NCBI GenBank assembly: GCA_021205305.1
Contig: JAJPXU010000011.1
Coordinates: 10,553 to 74,552 of the forward strand
DNA length: 64,000 bases
DNA from: Lachnospiraceae bacterium
Lineage (GTDB): Bacteria > Bacillota > Clostridia > Lachnospirales > Lachnospiraceae
Direction of reading: 5' to 3'
In this document: piece after piece, positions 24,921-48,521 of the stretch
Numbering within the stretch: position 1 is the first letter of the stretch
How the letters are laid out: each line of letters begins with the position of its first letter
The notes under the pieces: generated by a model
What the model was told of the DNA's origin: nothing
Database searches by the model: none
Seen by the model: the letters and a program-made list of their open reading frames with translations, nothing else
Position numbers and translations under genes: made by a program

Positions 24921-25055
24921 CTACACTGCCTCAGAATTATCTGATGATTCTTTGAAGAATTCCTGCAGCATTCTCGTTTTATCCACAAAATACGGCTTTT
25001 TTGTTTCACTCTCATAAAGCGAAAGCAACAACGGGTTATTCAAATAGTACCCCAT
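24921..25055 (-). pseudogene. 44-codon remnant resembling the N-terminus of AAA-ATPase-like (PD-(D/E)XK-associated) proteins
   Basis: Hand translation MGYYLNNPLLLSLYESETKKPYFVDKTRMLQEFFKESSDNSEAV*, GGAGGTG RBS; YLN...YFVDKT pattern recognised from memory. Confidence 0.6.
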
Positions 25056-25346
25056 ACTCTTACACCTCCATTCGCCTCTTGACGAGCATCACACTTTATA
25101 AAACATCATCACTGCTGTTGTCATTAATTATCATAGCACAGCAAGAGTAGGTATTCTACAAATATTTTTCTTATGATTTTCCTAATCCTCTTTTGCTTGC
25201 TACCAGAAGTTTAGTGATGCCTGTTGGATTACTACACTTCTTCCCGGGCATGTACAATTCCGGGGACGCCGCAATTCGTCTATACAACTACCTTTGTGGT
25301 CAATGGCATGGTTGCAATGCCGGAACAGTGAATATTGGTTCGTTTT

Positions 25347-26093
25347 TTATTCCATTCCAACCAGAAACCCGGCATCCGTCAGACTTTTCTCCGCAGCTTC
25401 AGCATTACCCTTCCCTTTTATCCGAAGCCAGACCAGATGCACAGATACAGAGCTTCCATAACCAGCGAGCCATGTGCGCATCTGAGCCGCATCCATATAG
25501 AGGCCGTCACCGGATACCAGACCGAGAAATTCCGCTGTATCCGCCGACGTATATCCGGAACCGCCTGAATTACCCGCTGAACCTGAGCTACCGGCAATAT
25601 TGGAAGCTTCCAATACGATCTGTGCCGTCAGGTTCTCGATAGATTCTGTCAAAATCTTCGATTGCCGTGCGGTAATCGCCGTTCCGTTTGCATCCGTCAT
25701 AGTGTTAAAAATTTCTTCCCCAACCAGAAGGAGCGGCGCAGAACCAAGCTTCTTTTCTCCGGTAGAGCGAACCAGTGTAAATGGAAATGTCTCCAGATCG
25801 ACTCCCATCAGGGTTATGGATATCTGCCAGTCTCCTACTGTCAGAGTGACTTCCGATTCCATAACGGTCCACAGTTCTTCAAAGCCGGCAAAACGGCTCA
25901 TGGATGTACACAGTTCTGTCGTAATCTCCTGTGAAGGCAGGCGGGCAGAAAAGATATATGTCTGCCGTTCCTGCCATTGTTCCAGTGCAAACTGTGCCAG
26001 GAGAAAAATCAGAGCAGCCGCTATGCCAGTCACGAAAACCACAGCGCTGACAAATGGCAGATATTTTCTTTTATTTGCTTTCCGTTTTGTCAT
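25347..26093 (-). CDS. Single-TM protein resembling the N-terminal/periplasmic part of a MacB-like ABC permease, possibly truncated
   Basis: One N-terminal TM, then ITLMGVD..FPFTLV..G..LLVGEE; no C-terminal TM bundle. Confidence 0.5.
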   Translation of the reverse strand: MTKRKANKRKYLPFVSAVVFVTGIAAALIFLLAQFALEQWQERQTYIFSARLPSQEITTELCTSMSRFAGFEELWTVMESEVTLTVGDWQISITLMGVDLETFPFTLVRSTGEKKLGSAPLLLVGEEIFNTMTDANGTAITARQSKILTESIENLTAQIVLEASNIAGSSGSAGNSGGSGYTSADTAEFLGLVSGDGLYMDAAQMRTWLAGYGSSVSVHLVWLRIKGKGNAEAAEKSLTDAGFLVGME

Positions 26094-26169
26094 GGCTTTC
26101 CATGTGCTTTCTTTTTCATGGTTTTATCTCCTATAAAAACGCCTATCGCAAAGTGATTCAAATTGGCAG

Positions 26170-26212
26170 CTCGCCATCGGGTGAAGTTCAATTCTAATCG
26201 GCAAGGTTCTCC
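26170..26212 (+). repeat. Degenerate family A palindrome overlapping the stop codon of the COG1361-like gene
   Basis: CTCGCCATCGGGTGAAGTTCAATTCTAATCGGCAAGGTTCTCC aligns with 28391-28430. Confidence 0.65.
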
Positions 26213-28233
26213 ATTCCTGCAAGCAGATCTTCCATCTGGCGGCTTTTTTTCGTGAGTTTCCAAATAAGCACTGCAATCAGAAGCAGAAAAAACAGAATCA
26301 TGATTACTATCGTCACTGCCCACCACTGGTTTGAAGTACTCTCTTCCTCTGCTTCAATGGAAAGTTCCACCACCTGCGGTGCTGCGATTGTTGTGGTAAA
26401 TTCCCGCGTATCGGTGTAAACTGTCCCGTAAGCATCCTCCCAGGTAAGAGTAAGCGTCCCTGTTGTGGAACCATATGCAGTCTCAGCATTAACATCATTG
26501 GCAGTGTCGGAGGCTTCTGTTCCCTGCGACGATTCATCTTTATCGTTTAAATTACTGACATAAATCTTAATCGTCCCATCGTTGGAAGTCCCTGCTTCCA
26601 TGTTTCCGGCATAAACCGTGTTCGTTGCGATCAGTCCGTCCGCTTCCAAAGATACCTGTACATTGTAAACCGGTCCGCGCCCGGTATTGCGAACCTCCAG
26701 TGTCGCCGTTACTGTCTCCAACGAATACACAGAATCGGACAGGTTAAAATTTTCGATGGAAACCTGCGTTTCCTGGCTGATGTCAAAAAACAGTTCTTCC
26801 GAATCGCTTAAGGACGTTCCGTCCGAAGTTTCATACACGAAAGAATAGTTTAAAGCAGCAATTTTTTGTGTCGCTGCGGCTGAAGCGGCAATCGTGTTTT
26901 CCAGCGTGATCACTTCCTGCGGGGCAATCTGATCATAATAGTAAGAGGTGGATGAAAGCGCAACATTCTCATCTGCTGTATTTACCGTGATTTTCAGACT
27001 ATACACGGTCTGGTCATCGCTCGTATTCTGGAAGCTTGTGATAAAATCCATCTGCTCCCCTGCCGGAAGCAAAGCTCCGCTAAGTGAGCATTCTTTCAGC
27101 AAAATATGCGGCTGGTGCTTCACCGCACTGCTGCTTGCACTGCCACTGTAACTGCTCCCGGAAGAATAATACGTCGTTACAGCTTCCATTTCTGTTTCAG
27201 ATTCTGTCTCCGTTTCGGATTCTGTCTCCGTTTCGGGTTCCGATTCTGACCCGGATTCTGTCTGAAACTCCGGCTCTGGTTCCGTAACAATCAGCGCGTC
27301 CGTCTCTGATTCTGGTTCCCAATTCGTTTCGCTCTCTGTCTGTTGCCGGGAATCGGATTCCAGGGTCACTGTCATCCGGCAGGTCATCTCAGATTTCACA
27401 CCGGAAGCAGAATAAGCGACCGCTTTCACTGTAACCGGATACTGCCCTGACTGGTAATCATCCGCAAGTGTAAATTCAGCTTGAAAGAGGTATGCGTCCA
27501 CGCTTTCCAAAGTACCGTCCAGATGCGAAGCATTTTCCTCAATGGATGGCACCTGATAAGTCAGTAAAAACACTTCCTCCTCATACTCCGCCTTTTCAAA
27601 AGGGGAATCCAGAGCAGATTCCACCGTTACCGTCAGCTTATTCTCCAATACCGGAGCATCTGCCACAAATGGAATTACAAGAGAAACCGTATTTTCTTTT
27701 ATCGATGGAACATATCCCTCTATATAAGATAATTCCATTCCTTCATACACATGATATACATCAATAGAAAGAGAAATCTGTGAAAATTCTGCCCCTGCAT
27801 CCGAATTTCCAGTGTCTGCATTTCCCATATCGTCAGCTACAGAAGCAATCGTGCCTGTTTCGTTATTATACATCGTGTTTTCCTGATTGGTTATCGATTC
27901 CAAAGCAGAATCCGGAATAGCGGAGGACGGCACCTCTTCCATGCTGTCGATTTGGAGAGCCTCGCCATTCTGAATCGAGCTCTGCTCGATGGCGAGGCCT
28001 TCGTCCTCGATTCTCTGCGAGAATCGGGACATGTTTTGGAGAGCCTCGCCATTCTGAATCGAGCTTTGCTCGATGGCGAGGCTCTCTGTTTCCTGCCCTT
28101 CCAGCACAACCGCTTCCTCAGCCAGTGCAATCCAGCGGAAAGATACTACGGCCGAAGCAAAAACAAGGACAGCCAAAAAAGCTGCAAGTATCCTGTATCG
28201 TATGGCATTCTTCTCGCTGCTCATATACCGCAT
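26194..28233 (-). CDS. COG1361-like surface protein (signal/TM, Ig-like domains, C-terminal TM)
   Basis: N-terminal hydrophobic leader, QPHILLK...NTG..PVYNVQV..GNMEAG motifs, C-terminal WWAVTIVIMILFFLLLIAVLIWK. Confidence 0.7.
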   Translation of the reverse strand: MRYMSSEKNAIRYRILAAFLAVLVFASAVVSFRWIALAEEAVVLEGQETESLAIEQSSIQNGEALQNMSRFSQRIEDEGLAIEQSSIQNGEALQIDSMEEVPSSAIPDSALESITNQENTMYNNETGTIASVADDMGNADTGNSDAGAEFSQISLSIDVYHVYEGMELSYIEGYVPSIKENTVSLVIPFVADAPVLENKLTVTVESALDSPFEKAEYEEEVFLLTYQVPSIEENASHLDGTLESVDAYLFQAEFTLADDYQSGQYPVTVKAVAYSASGVKSEMTCRMTVTLESDSRQQTESETNWEPESETDALIVTEPEPEFQTESGSESEPETETESETETESETEMEAVTTYYSSGSSYSGSASSSAVKHQPHILLKECSLSGALLPAGEQMDFITSFQNTSDDQTVYSLKITVNTADENVALSSTSYYYDQIAPQEVITLENTIAASAAATQKIAALNYSFVYETSDGTSLSDSEELFFDISQETQVSIENFNLSDSVYSLETVTATLEVRNTGRGPVYNVQVSLEADGLIATNTVYAGNMEAGTSNDGTIKIYVSNLNDKDESSQGTEASDTANDVNAETAYGSTTGTLTLTWEDAYGTVYTDTREFTTTIAAPQVVELSIEAEEESTSNQWWAVTIVIMILFFLLLIAVLIWKLTKKSRQMEDLLAGMENLAD
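27952..28082 (-). repeat. In-frame A-B-A palindromic repeat mosaic inside the coding sequence
   Basis: Two 47-nt copies (27952-27998, 28036-28082; one mismatch, 84-nt offset) encode LAIEQSSIQNGEALQ twice around a CGATTCTC-GCA-GAGAATCG hairpin. Confidence 0.9.
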
Positions 28234-28313
28234 CCTCCTTCTTTCCTTTCAGCACTTTCCACGGGTACGTTCCTCTGTCTGATTTTCTATTCTTTCTGTA
28301 ATCTTTCTCATTA

Positions 28314-28430
28314 CATGTCCATGATTTGCGAAGCAAATCATGAACGAAGGCAATGTTCCGATTTTCGCAGAAAATCGAGAACGGTACCGAGCCATCGAGC
28401 GAAGCTCGATTTATAATGGCGAGGCTCTCC
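28314..28430 (+). repeat. Intergenic B-B-A palindromic mosaic
   Basis: ATGATTTGC-GAA-GCAAATCAT, CGATTTTC-GCA-GAAAATCG, ATCGAGC-GAA-GCTCGAT...ATGGCGAGGCTCTCC. Confidence 0.85.
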
Positions 28431-29061
28431 GCATCACGCCGCCATCCATCTCAAACACCCGGTCGCAAAGGATACGAATATCCTCACTGTTATGACTCGC
28501 AAGCAGGATTGTTTTTCCCTTTTGCTTCTGGGCAAGCAGCAGTCTGCGAATCTCCGCAACGCCATGGCGGTCAAGACCGTTAAACGGTTCATCGAGGATC
28601 AGAAGCTCCGGCTCTTCCATAATCGCCTGCGCAATGCCCAGCCGCTGCCGCATCCCCAGTGAATATTTTGCGACCGGCTTTTTCAATTCTGGATCAAGGC
28701 CGACACGCATAAGAACGGACGTGATTTCCTTTCTTCCGATCTGTCCACGCAAATCCGCCAGAATTTCCAGGTTTCTCCGCCCGCTTAAATTAGAAAGGAA
28801 TCCCGGTGTCTCGATGATCACCCCAAGGCTCTCCGGAAAGTCTACATCATAGCCAATCCGTTTCCCGCCAACTGTGATCTGCCCTTCCGTCACCGGCAGA
28901 AAACCGCAGATGCATTTCATGAGAACCGTTTTTCCGGAGCCATTGTTCCCACAGATACCGTAAGTCCTGCCCCGTTCCACTGCAAAATCCAGAGGTTTTA
29001 ACACTTCCTCCGCGCCAAAACATTTTCGCACATGGCGCAGCTGAATATAATAATCTGTCAT
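28411..29061 (-). CDS. ABC transporter ATP-binding protein (BcrA/LanF-like export type)
   Basis: Walker A GNNGSGKT, signature YSLGMRQRLG, Walker B LLILDEP, ASH; start MTDYYI. Confidence 0.93.
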   Translation of the reverse strand: MTDYYIQLRHVRKCFGAEEVLKPLDFAVERGRTYGICGNNGSGKTVLMKCICGFLPVTEGQITVGGKRIGYDVDFPESLGVIIETPGFLSNLSGRRNLEILADLRGQIGRKEITSVLMRVGLDPELKKPVAKYSLGMRQRLGIAQAIMEEPELLILDEPFNGLDRHGVAEIRRLLLAQKQKGKTILLASHNSEDIRILCDRVFEMDGGVMRRASPL

Positions 29062-29185
29062 AATTTTTTCACTCCCTCCCGTTGCTTCCCTGTGTCTTTT
29101 ACGAAAATTTTTCTCATATCCATTTCTGTCTTTTTTACTCGTTTTCCTGCGATTAATCATTTCTTTCACAGTTACATTTTTTCTT

Positions 29186-29914
29186 TTATATCTCTCTCAA
29201 CTCCCATTTCAGCACGATCCAGTGCAGCACGGCACAGAATAACGCGAGTAAAAGCAGAAACATCCAGAGCCCCATCTGGTTGCTTCCCCAGTCATTTTCT
29301 GCCATAATCCATTCCGTTGGGTCAATGCAGTAAAGCGCTTCAAAATAACGCTCCCGCAGGATGATGCAGGCATACCATAAAAGAAAAGGAACGCCGAACG
29401 CCAGATACACGCTGCCGCCAAGGGCACCGGCAACTGCGGAAAGACTGGCAAGCGATGAAGCCGAAAGCAGGATGCGTCCCAGCGTGGCAAGCAAAGTAAA
29501 AATCGTACTCATCGGCCAGTTCCACAGTGCTTCGCGGCTGAAAAAAAGCAAAAAAAAGAAAAGCCCCGCGAAAAATGCCCCCAAAAACCAGACAATCGCT
29601 CCGGAAAGCGCGGTCGTCACCACCTTGTCCAGACAGTAAACCGCTTTGCTCCGACGAATAATCAGGAAGCGCAAAAAACGGGAATCCTTTTCCCGCAGAT
29701 ACTCCTCTCCGCAGGGCAGGACGGCAGCGAGCGGCAAAATAAAAAGCACGGTCTGAGACTGCAGGGAACTGTTCAGCAGCTCCAGAAAGGTACCGCAAGC
29801 CAGAGGCGAATCTTTTTTCGTCTCCGGCCAGACGGTTCCGGCTATGATAGCCGCCACGGAAAGCAGCACCGCCAGATAGAATTTTTTCTCATGCAGCATT
29901 CTGGTAAAATCCAT
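29186..29914 (-). CDS. ABC-2-type membrane subunit (putative)
   Basis: About six hydrophobic segments; adjacent to the ATPase. Confidence 0.7.
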   Translation of the reverse strand: MDFTRMLHEKKFYLAVLLSVAAIIAGTVWPETKKDSPLACGTFLELLNSSLQSQTVLFILPLAAVLPCGEEYLREKDSRFLRFLIIRRSKAVYCLDKVVTTALSGAIVWFLGAFFAGLFFFLLFFSREALWNWPMSTIFTLLATLGRILLSASSLASLSAVAGALGGSVYLAFGVPFLLWYACIILRERYFEALYCIDPTEWIMAENDWGSNQMGLWMFLLLLALFCAVLHWIVLKWELREI

Positions 29915-31564
29915 CTAATACCCCAGACTGCGGTCGATGATCGTGCCGTCCGCCGCATTAATCGTCAGGAAGCTATTGCCCGGATAATCAATATAGCTCG
30001 TATATTCTACTCCATCGTATGTACTGTGTGTTTCCTCGCTTCCGAAGAAATCCCACACCGGCACAAGCGTTCCGCTGCGGCTGTCCGCGCCCGGATCATA
30101 GATGCGCATATATCCAAGAGTGACTTCTGTAATTTCCAGACTTGCGGAATCCTCGTAGCTGTCTGTGTGCTGGATCACGATCATCTGCTCAAATATTTCT
30201 GCTATTTCGGAGAAAGAAAGCATATCCACGTTCTCATACTTCTTTTCTCCGACCTCGTACAGATTCTGAATCTCTGCTTCCTGCAGGCCATCTGCATTCA
30301 CAATAAAGGTCACTAATTCATAGCACCACGGTTCCGTCGTGCTTTCCATGGATTCCAGTCCGCCGCCCTCTTTCATCTCGTAGGTAACGGGGATCCCGTC
30401 GAGTGTCCGTGTGTAAACAATGTACCAGCCTCCGTCGATGCAGCTTGCCGTGTACGTATATGATGTAAAGAGATCACTCTCCAGGCTCCGCCACGCATGC
30501 GTCGTGAAGCCCACAGAGAATTCGTCAGACAGCCCCAGCTGCTCCATATACGTGTCTGTAACTGCGATTGCCTCCTCCACCGTGATTCCCGCCAGTTCCT
30601 CACACTTCTCCTGCGTTGGTCGATAAGCATTGGAAGCATAAGCTTCTGAATCGTAGCAGGTTTCCTTCCAGCTGACATTCTCTGCCAGCTCTTCCTTATC
30701 AGCATAGCGGGAAATTTTAATCGACATCGGTGTAGGGGATGAACTCTTCAAAATATAGGAAAAAAGACCGTCCTCCGTTTCCACGAATCCGTTAAAATAA
30801 CCTTCATAGTACACCGTGTTTCCATTCTCATCCTCGTAAGAGGTTACGCCAAAACCGGGCGTGACTTCCGTCTTTTCCACCGTTTCCGGAGCTTCCGCAT
30901 AAACCTGCTCCCACTCATCAATCTCTTCCTGAAGGTTGAAGATATCATCCTCCGTGACAGACCCATCCTCAAATGCGCCGCTTTCTCTTGCAGCTTCGAT
31001 ATAACCGTATGGATCTGTATTGCCCTCCGCTTGATACTCCTTCAGCTCATTTAGTTTCTCCAATGCCTCTGTCTTTGTCGTCTGATAGTAATAAGCATAA
31101 TCGTAAACCGGGTTTTCTCCGAAAAAAGCTTCAGTTACCAGGTCAATAAATTCCTGAGTGAATTCCATCTGAGAAACCGAGTAAACCGGCACCTGTGAGA
31201 CATCCGGCACCTCAACCATAGCGTTGTTACTGGTCATAGTGAAGCTTCCGTCGGATGTGGAGGCTGCCGCGGTGTAGGTGTCCGGCACGCCAAGGCGGGT
31301 GGCGAGGACATTTTCAGCATTACCGCTAACGGTATCTTCCTGGTCAATGCTTCCTGTGTCCGGTTCATCCTCTAACGATACTTCAACTCCAGAAACATTC
31401 TGCGTCTCACCCGTCTCTTCAGATGAACCGTCATCCGCCTCACGGTAATTATCCTGACTCTGGCTTCCCTTCTGCCGCACAATGCTGCTATCCGGTGTGG
31501 CAGCGCAGCCCGATAACAACATTGCGCTAAGCAACAGGGCAAGGTAACGTCTTCTATTTTTCAT
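29915..31564 (-). CDS. Acidic lipoprotein (DUF6034-like)
   Basis: Lipobox LLSGC; C-terminal LVPVWDFFG...LTINAADGTIIDRSLGY. Confidence 0.75.
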   Translation of the reverse strand: MKNRRRYLALLLSAMLLSGCAATPDSSIVRQKGSQSQDNYREADDGSSEETGETQNVSGVEVSLEDEPDTGSIDQEDTVSGNAENVLATRLGVPDTYTAAASTSDGSFTMTSNNAMVEVPDVSQVPVYSVSQMEFTQEFIDLVTEAFFGENPVYDYAYYYQTTKTEALEKLNELKEYQAEGNTDPYGYIEAARESGAFEDGSVTEDDIFNLQEEIDEWEQVYAEAPETVEKTEVTPGFGVTSYEDENGNTVYYEGYFNGFVETEDGLFSYILKSSSPTPMSIKISRYADKEELAENVSWKETCYDSEAYASNAYRPTQEKCEELAGITVEEAIAVTDTYMEQLGLSDEFSVGFTTHAWRSLESDLFTSYTYTASCIDGGWYIVYTRTLDGIPVTYEMKEGGGLESMESTTEPWCYELVTFIVNADGLQEAEIQNLYEVGEKKYENVDMLSFSEIAEIFEQMIVIQHTDSYEDSASLEITEVTLGYMRIYDPGADSRSGTLVPVWDFFGSEETHSTYDGVEYTSYIDYPGNSFLTINAADGTIIDRSLGY

Positions 31565-48408: not shown

Positions 48409-48521
48409 AATCGGACAGAATGTATGTTCACATTCTGTCCGATTATTGTCCATGATTTGCGCAGCAAATCGTGGACACAACCCTCGCCATCGCAGAGCAA
48501 TTTTAAATGGCGAGGCTTTCC
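48409..48521 (+). repeat. Intergenic C-B-A palindromic mosaic
   Basis: AATCGGACAGAATGT/ACATTCTGTCCGATT, TGTCCATGATTTGC-GCA-GCAAATCGTGGACA, CCTCGCCAT...ATGGCGAGGCTTTCC. Confidence 0.85.

Follow-up and report, generated by a model that had tools for sequence, protein, structure and literature searches.

That hairpin repeats colonise genes in frame is textbook knowledge for Rickettsia, and the same has been listed for REPs in Proteobacteria and in a few further groups. Among the closest described systems are the Rickettsia palindromic elements RPE-1 to RPE-10 (Ogata et al. 2000 Science 290:347; Ogata et al. 2002 Genome Res 12:808), which are summarised in part of a review that also treats other MITEs making in-frame fusions (PMC10969869). 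GTAG- and CGTC-tagged REPs occur inside ORFs (Di Nocera et al. 2013, PMC3733652), according to a survey in which Firmicutes and Clostridia go unmentioned, and intragenic small mobile sequences of enterobacteria, the ERIC/RU elements, have also been described (Delihas 2007, PMC2759123). Both RPEs and intragenic REPs are understood as selfish DNA that is tolerated where the harm is small (PMC10969869, PMC3733652). For Lachnospiraceae or other gut Firmicutes, we found no description of in-frame hairpin repeats in the literature.

Here we report a family of hairpin repeats from a Lachnospiraceae MAG (91% complete), centred on a window of 64,000 nt, by which we mean the whole stretch of DNA analysed. 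A sequence-only reading of this window had proposed that an intergenic palindromic mosaic is translated in frame inside a surface protein, to which it adds about 45 residues. The in-frame position was confirmed: an A-B-A array of 132 nt at window positions 27951-28082, made up of two 48-nt A copies around a 36-nt B, lies inside a long ORF of the minus strand, directly after the conserved signal-anchor of the predicted protein. The gene, the array and the neighbouring copies are the following.

26194..28233, minus strand: host gene, ORF of 676/679 aa, with a likely start at ATG 28224 that gives 676 aa
28234..28238, minus strand: ribosome-binding site GGAGG, 9 nt ahead of the ATG (28224-28222)
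28035..28082, minus strand: A module, copy nearest the gene 5' end, a two-stem hairpin encoding (S)LAIEQSSIQNGEALQ
27999..28034, minus strand: B module, a single hairpin encoding NMSRFSQRIEDE(G)
27951..27998, minus strand: A module, second copy, encoding LAIEQSSIQNGEALQ
28316..28430, plus strand: B'-B-A copy in opposite orientation, between an ABC ATPase gene and the host gene
26170..26213, plus strand: degenerate A-like copy, overlapping the final codons of the host gene and its stop (..MENLAD*)
48447..48521, plus strand: non-coding B'-A unit

The two A copies are 98% identical, differing by one base, and their starts lie 84 nt apart; shuffles of the window yielded no such matches. This period preserves the frame, as had been claimed, given that 84 nt amount to 28 codons and that the length variants at the site all come in multiples of three. 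Translation of the minus strand over 27952-28083 gives SLAIEQSSIQNGEALQ-NMSRFSQRIEDEG-LAIEQSSIQNGEALQ, and the peptides predicted across the A-B junction include FSQRIEDEGLAIEQSSIQNGEALQIDSMEEVPSSAIPDSALESITNQENTMYNNETGTIASVADDMGNADTGNSDAGAEFSQISLSIDVYHVYEGMELSYIEGYVPSIK. The A module folds into a two-stem hairpin, with outer stem GCCTCGCCAT / ATGGCGAGGC and inner stem TCGAGC / GCTCGA, and B folds into a single hairpin (CCGATTCTC / GAGAATCG). As single-stranded DNA, a 146-nt stretch is predicted to form three local hairpins (-48.8 kcal/mol, z=-9.0), and the same stretch folded as RNA reaches -80.6 kcal/mol (z=-9.3). A stable mRNA structure of this sort, 150 nt into the host ORF, could affect expression.

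Two further copies had been cited as non-coding counterparts of the array, and both exist: that at 28316-28430 is an inverted B'-B-A mosaic, and that at 48447-48521 is a B'-A unit (nhmmer E=6e-13) preceded by another hairpin at 48409-48446. The label non-coding did not hold for the A of the former (28391-28430), which provides the ABC ATPase gene with its final codons and stop (..MRRASPL*). The same copy is absent at the orthologous loci L015 and L016, and is present in L013 without its middle B. At the opposite end of the host gene, the C-terminus of the protein varies among orthologues, at the point where the degenerate A-like copy overlaps the gene end.

These sequences belong to a dispersed family that was observed directly throughout the genome. 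Its canonical unit is B-A, approximately 79 nt long, with the layout TGTCC..stem-loop..GGACG-N-AGGCC..two-stem hairpin..ATGGCGAGGCTCTCC. The 38 nhmmer profile matches in the genome, some of which overlap or are partial, were counted as approximately 30 copies; at least six of these lie inside long ORFs, and the others are intergenic or at gene ends. The modules appear in the orders A-B-A, B'-B-A, B'-A, B-A and B-A-B-A, as well as in the form of solo A and solo B, and in one copy an A encloses a third hairpin. GTAGGCC precedes many of the A stems; the tetranucleotide there varies among GTAG, GAAG and GCAG, with GAAG in the copies of the window. When 32 distinct units were considered under a three-helix structure, 92.5% of cells paired, against 31-37% with the partners slid by one to three columns. 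Changes on both sides were seen in 19 of the 25 pairs, a figure reached by none of 500 shuffles, and no shuffle attained any of the measures. The stems covary, which indicates that the hairpins themselves are conserved as their sequence drifts. Depending on the frame, 34-66% of the copies are open, versus 35% in shuffles, a modest difference in a family whose indels blur the definition of a frame. An Rfam search of window positions 25000-30000 at E<=1 returned no family and one sub-threshold chance match.

Among the genomes of the genus that were searched, 7 of 25 carry the element, and BLAST gave 8-26 matches in each carrier. When one genome per species (185,579 species) was scanned for the exact pattern, the scan retrieved only related MAGs named 'Lachnospiraceae bacterium' and 'Clostridiales bacterium', along with scattered single matches in unrelated taxa that resemble chance. 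Judging from these patterns, the family occurs only in certain species of a single uncultured Lachnospiraceae clade. A phage origin was considered and set aside, as the A pattern had no match in viral contigs. The 44-aa peptide encoded by the array was compared with 1.84 billion representative proteins and found only one 72-aa ORF, the sequence of which matches a B-A-B-A array, and one chance TPR match. Because it is essentially absent from these representatives, we conclude that the peptide is not a protein motif.

The site of the array was compared among orthologues at the position after ..QETE. Variation in copy number had been predicted, and it is present across the orthologues, which display A', A'+A, A and A-B-A.

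P0008 and P0009 (also L015): peptide NLTAEQNLNQSDEALQ; A' only, hairpin lost
P0003, P0004, P0006 and P0007 (also L016): SLTTEQNLNQNDEG followed by LAIEQS(T/S/L)IQN(G/D)EALQ; A' + A
P0005: A' partly deleted, plus A; A' remnant + A
P0001, P0002 and L009 (also L013): for example SLVIEQSSIQDGEALQ; single intact A
Window (present genome): A-B-A, unique in the series

In the more distant orthologues A' has decayed and lost the ability to fold into a hairpin, and it occurs there alone or next to a fresh A. The A' DNA of L015 is approximately 60% identical to A in an ungapped comparison, with A-like ends and unpaired stem positions, and we interpret it as the decayed remains of an old A copy. In the DNA of L013 the hairpin is intact. 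The alignment of orthologues proposed by the sequence-only reading did not refute it: in the closest orthologues (aligned identity 91-92%), exactly 28 residues are missing and a single A hairpin survives intact. At this site the present genome exceeds L013 by exactly 84 nt (28 aa), comprising one 79-nt B-A unit (ATGTCCCG...GGCTCTCC) and AAAAC, and the AAATC that follows the second A copy resembles the AAAAC that follows the first, as in a 5-nt flank duplication. Among the orthologues seen, the B module is in a translated frame only in the present genome. The gain of about 45 residues must accordingly be divided: of the 44 residues encoded by the element, the nearest relatives lack approximately 28, and the remaining 16 derive from an older copy common to the orthologue group.

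The N-terminus of the host protein is conserved on the near side of the array. All nine full-length orthologues begin MS..(K/M)N.I.YRI.. at the equivalent ATG, and in all nine the signal-anchor MSSEKN.IRYRILAAFLAV...ALAEEAVVLE.QETE is conserved; the hydrophobic anchor and the motif A(E/D)EAVVLE.QETE immediately precede the repeat in 9/9. The start codon had been named as a point to check, and the ATG at 28224, its GGAGG and the anchor were all found upstream of the repeat, so this check did not refute the reading either. Based on this context, the repeat is very probably translated as part of the host protein. The designation surface protein is plausible in view of the signal-anchor, the beta-sandwich-like segments and the C-terminal membrane helix, and no family match backs the name: Pfam and NCBIfam gave low-complexity or sub-threshold matches only for the host protein, and no match for the neighbours of 248 and 242 aa. 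Membrane-anchored envelope protein is a fair description, and a surface location is putative.

The AF2 model of this protein, made from a 10-sequence alignment, has a mean pLDDT of 37.6. It places an N-terminal helix at residues 5-28, a low-confidence region at 22-176 that holds the insert, beta-rich segments, and a C-terminal membrane helix; block means of pLDDT are 22-32 for residues 31-170, insert included. The protein also has an acidic SE/TE low-complexity tract. The insert region is probably a non-globular or disordered stalk, a notion that the model grounds weakly because it is poor overall.

The family has entered other genes too, and the following further long ORFs, at least five in the genome, carry the B-A unit in frame.

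C69: radical-SAM/SPASM enzyme
C78: TRAM + uracil-5-methyltransferase (RumA-like)
C35:74861-74933, just past the window: GatA-type amidase
C161: 507-aa ORF
C111: 567-aa membrane protein

All five have the element in the orientation opposite to that in the host gene and in one frame, which reads roughly ESLAMQN..S.CV.DS..ESGQ. The 507-aa ORF was considered as PDDEXK_9-like, for which Pfam gave no support at 1e-5. Empty sites were found for three of the genes. In the radical-SAM enzyme, the flanks are 98% identical in G018 and G001, which read PETVE(D/E)GMIYGGC, and the present genome, G000, has 26 extra residues there; the insert is also absent in G013 and is common to G019 and G021. In the RumA-like gene, the match skips 28 residues in 27 of the 29 other genomes of the genus with a match, including G021 and G015 (93-96% identity; 94-96% for G021). 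The remaining two, G022 and G009, match across the site, where G022 (L104) has unrelated sequence. The filled site of this gene resembles a 79-nt element plus a 5-nt duplication. For GatA, the G015 protein matches residues 1-269 at 100% identity and residues 294-521 at 96%, and precisely residues 270-293 are missing from it; the insert is absent from 25 other genomes too, and is present in G021. Empty sites in orthologues that are 94-100% identical indicate that the family entered genes recently and repeatedly, and among the intragenic insertions seen all outcomes preserve the frame.

Collectively, these observations are likely explained by a tolerated, selfish and non-autonomous hairpin repeat that inserted in frame in a non-globular stalk. 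The short dispersed repeat consists of A and B, each a hairpin, and we propose that an A copy long ago inserted near the 5' end of the membrane-protein gene, just past the signal-anchor. A further 84 nt would then have been added beside the old A in the present genome, as a B-A unit with a 5-nt flank duplication (AAAAC/AAATC). Alternatively, the gain may have come by gene conversion from an A-B-A donor, for instance the B-A-B-A array that lies 40 kb off at C35:78980-79143, is 95% identical, and sits upstream of an aspS/asnS-like gene. Another B-A copy is found at C76:1629-1711. By either route, the host site is a hotspot of repeat-driven in-frame change. As 84 nt make 28 codons in a frame without a stop, the ribosome would read through, with a gain of 44 element-encoded residues. 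The insert would be tolerated, and may be neutral, because the site is of low complexity and probably forms a stalk between the anchor and the folded beta-rich domains.

The manner in which the family moves was approached through its flanks and through candidate enzymes. Flank duplications measure 5 nt in the RumA-like gene and in the host gene and approximately 8 nt at the end of the ABC ATPase gene, and none is recognisable in the radical-SAM gene. Flank duplications this inconsistent point to no single insertion mechanism, and transposition or gene conversion may each account for the 84-nt gain. The ends of the unit, TGTCC.. and ..GGCTCTCC, are not inverted repeats, and no terminal inverted repeats were found. 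Mobilisation of the RAYT/IS200 type was rejected: PF01797 (Y1/RAYT-type) is absent from G000 and from the carrier G018 (100% complete, 14 element matches), and many genomes that lack the element do have it. The analysis identified no mobilising enzyme. A T-box leader as the target of insertion was also dismissed, since Rfam gave no T-box or other family at the B-A-B-A locus upstream of the aspS/asnS-like gene.

Four other explanations of the array were weighed against that of a tolerated insertion. In a MAG, A-B-A might be an artefact, a graph path threaded via other repeat copies during metagenome assembly, and approximately 50 nt of B and its flanks are indeed identical at two other loci; the interiors of B and A alone are likewise shared with other loci when checked by 33-mers. 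The 33-mers at all four junctions (flank-A1, A1-B, B-A2, A2-flank), however, occur once in the 3.12-Mb assembly. Since unique 33-mers cover every junction, a chimeric path is unlikely, and with the A copies differing by one base and each variant tied to its own flank we regard an artefact as very improbable. It is equally hard to believe that the repeat lies in a 5' untranslated region with the real start downstream of 27951. REPs annotated at ORF N-termini are often extragenic in other species (PMC3733652), and the present genome has a Met at IDSMEEV, the only one shortly downstream, but this residue is Ile in every orthologue. A downstream start is improbable because the conserved signal-anchor would be lost, and both the GGAGG placed 9 nt before ATG 28224 and a frame that stays open through four repeat configurations speak against it. 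A native peptide, selected at the protein level and with the non-coding look-alikes as gene fragments or derivatives, could draw on the distant orthologues, whose related 16-residue NLTAEQNLNQSDEALQ is encoded by DNA that no longer forms a hairpin. Against it stand the copies that lie, in either orientation, at dozens of unrelated sites both between and within genes, the covarying stems and the near absence of the peptide among 1.84 billion proteins. Moreover, the five other ORFs carry the opposite orientation and a different peptide (..S.AMQN..S...DS..ESG), and three of the five are confirmed host genes with empty orthologous sites. This reading is largely refuted, and we attach very little probability to it.

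A regulatory role deserves slightly more credit, although we consider it unlikely. The inverted copies at 28316-28430 and 27951-28082 bracket the ribosome-binding site, the start and the anchor codons, so that inverted arms flank the start of the host gene, as they would in an inverton, and they might act through RNA pairing over approximately 75 nt (as an RNase III target or in translation control) or as an on/off switch by DNA inversion. Over 45-55 nt the arms show 82-87% complementarity, at a separation of 313-397 nt, and the minimum-energy fold of a 501-nt mRNA uses the long-range duplex of about 75 nt (-236.9 kcal/mol, z=-13.3). Compared with locus L013, B was gained in both copies in the present genome. 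Yet the modules are self-complementary, so that local hairpins should form first during transcription, as the three local hairpins of the predicted fold suggest; the L015 and L016 orthologues keep the gene without the intergenic copy; there is no invertase nearby; and at numerous unrelated sites the behaviour of the family is that of selfish DNA. Similarly doubtful is the combination of a switch by inverted copies with a family that is a currently active element, entering genes in frame via an enzyme of no recognised transposase type. If the switch were real, gain and loss of modules would tune or phase-vary a membrane-anchored envelope protein in a gut commensal.

The tolerated insertion of a selfish repeat, the reading that we prefer, has implications beyond this locus. 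The host gene offers an unusually clean natural series, with one gene in four repeat configurations across species, and three conserved enzymes (GatA, the RumA-like rRNA methyltransferase and the radical-SAM/SPASM enzyme) have both filled and empty sites with flanks that are 94-100% identical. These provide material for the study of how proteins tolerate sudden insertions of 25-28 residues, of how frame and site are chosen, and of a mover that works without RAYT. They also hold a warning to annotators, namely that odd insertions in the proteins of MAGs from this clade are real repeat insertions rather than frameshifts or misassemblies.

In comparison with known systems, the A/B family resembles most of them in part. 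Like the RPEs and the Wolbachia palindromic elements, as far as the RPE account in PMC10969869 extends, it consists of dispersed palindromes found between genes and in frame within unrelated genes, including housekeeping ones, with a preferred reading frame, insert-free orthologues and no evident transposase. In the present genome this likeness is seen in palindromic copies both intergenic and intragenic, in the frame being kept, and in the absence of the insert from orthologues (84 nt relative to L013). Within the scope of the same account, it is unlike the RPEs in its host, a gut Lachnospiraceae of the Bacillota, in the length of its unit (approximately 79 nt versus approximately 100-150), in having two separable hairpin modules with varying orders and tandem arrays, and in the occurrence of both orientations in predicted translated frames. 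This separation from RPE-1 to RPE-10, for which no relation is expected, is drawn from phylum and unit length as that account gives them.

Similarly to REPs and BIMEs, the units are GC-rich imperfect hairpins of similar size that combine in mosaics, often adjoin gene 3' ends and donate stop codons, and sometimes lie wholly inside ORFs; distinct hairpin modules in variable order and number, as in BIME-type mosaics, were found here. The GTAGGCC before many A stems recalls the GTAG head of GTAG-tagged REPs. The tag itself varies in the A/B family (G-T/A/C-AG). RAYT/Y1 is absent both in G000 and in the complete carrier; as the defining transposase was sought and not found, we do not class the family as a RAYT-mobilised REP. 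With ERIC/RU elements and MITEs it shares the features of small non-autonomous repeats that have open frames and are occasionally part of host proteins, and some sites here have short flank duplications. It departs from both in that its unit lacks terminal inverted repeats, its flank duplications are of inconsistent length, and a parent insertion sequence was not seen. The most economical reading, by analogy, is that the A/B family works like the RPEs and the intragenic REPs. The kind of element is already in print, and the novelty lies in the family and the clade that hosts it, in its assembly from A and B modules, and in the clean filled and empty sites offered by conserved enzymes.

In the genome from which the window comes (G000), units of the hairpin modules A and B also lie in frame within three genes beyond the membrane-protein gene:

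Contig C35 (the window's own), 74861-74933, about 300 nt past the window's end: B-A insert in GatA (Glu-tRNA-Gln amidotransferase A, Pfam Amidase)
Contig C78, 16880-16957: A-B insert in the gene of a RumA-like rRNA uracil-methyltransferase
Contig C69, 3413-3487: A-B insert in the gene of a radical-SAM/SPASM enzyme

The GatA insert adds 24 residues (VSPSMQNRLAAMVGPASSIRGGES) and is common to G000 and its relative G021. It is missing from G015, where the flanks are 100% and 96% identical, and from 25 other genomes of the genus. The other two inserts add 26-28 residues, and near-identical orthologues are without them. The G021 copy of the radical-SAM gene (locus L020) carries an extra 39-nt hairpin nested within A, with the frame kept. 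In the RumA-like orthologues of G010 (contig C102) and G019 (C53), matches to the RumA-like gene are broken at another site, near residue 235, with open frames that span 543-624 aa versus about 460-490. This suggests that the gene harbors other in-frame insertions there.

Copies of A also supply the final codons and stop of two genes of one operon:

Window 28391-28430: A copy at the 3′ end of the ABC ATPase gene
Window 26170-26213: degenerate A at the 3′ end of the membrane-protein gene

The ABC ATPase ends ..GGVMRRASPL* in the window versus ..GGVMREITNRIE* in the element-free loci L015 and L016, and about 8 nt (GTGATGAG) are duplicated at the filled site. The degenerate A contains the end of the membrane protein, ..MENLAD*; other orthologues end ..METLS or ..MEHSYDKTETK.

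A second repeat family, likewise in frame, encodes the peptide ..(R)RQ.A(P/S)SIE(E/R)NASHLDG(A/T).. in four long ORFs of G000, namely the membrane protein, a 728-aa serine-recombinase-like ORF, an 871-aa ORF, and a 507-aa ORF (C161):

Window 27514-27552, (-) strand: peptide in the membrane protein
Contigs C112 (~8741), C116, and C161 (~11016): other sites in G000

In the membrane protein, it amounts to 8 extra residues relative to orthologues P0003-P0009, and orthologues P0009 and P0010 carry the peptide at another position.

The minimum-energy mRNA fold of window 27940-28440, (-) strand, is predicted at -236.9 kcal/mol (z=-13.3). In it, the intergenic A-B and the intragenic B-A would form a duplex of about 75 nt that encloses both the start of the membrane-protein gene and its ribosome-binding site.

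Outside the window, a tandem array is 95% identical to the window's A-B-A:

Contig C35, 78980-79143: B-A-B-A array, flanked on one side by a hairpin-rich leader and on the other by the start of an aspS/asnS-like gene

The array is open in the frame of this gene, yet lies upstream of its Met. Rfam detected no T-box at the locus. At the sequence level, P0015, a 72-aa ORF from another assembly, matches the array.

Finally, the A/B mosaic has a third module type attached to it:

Window 48409-48446: perfect hairpin (AATCGGACAGAATGT..ACATTCTGTCCGATT), immediately upstream of a B′-A unit
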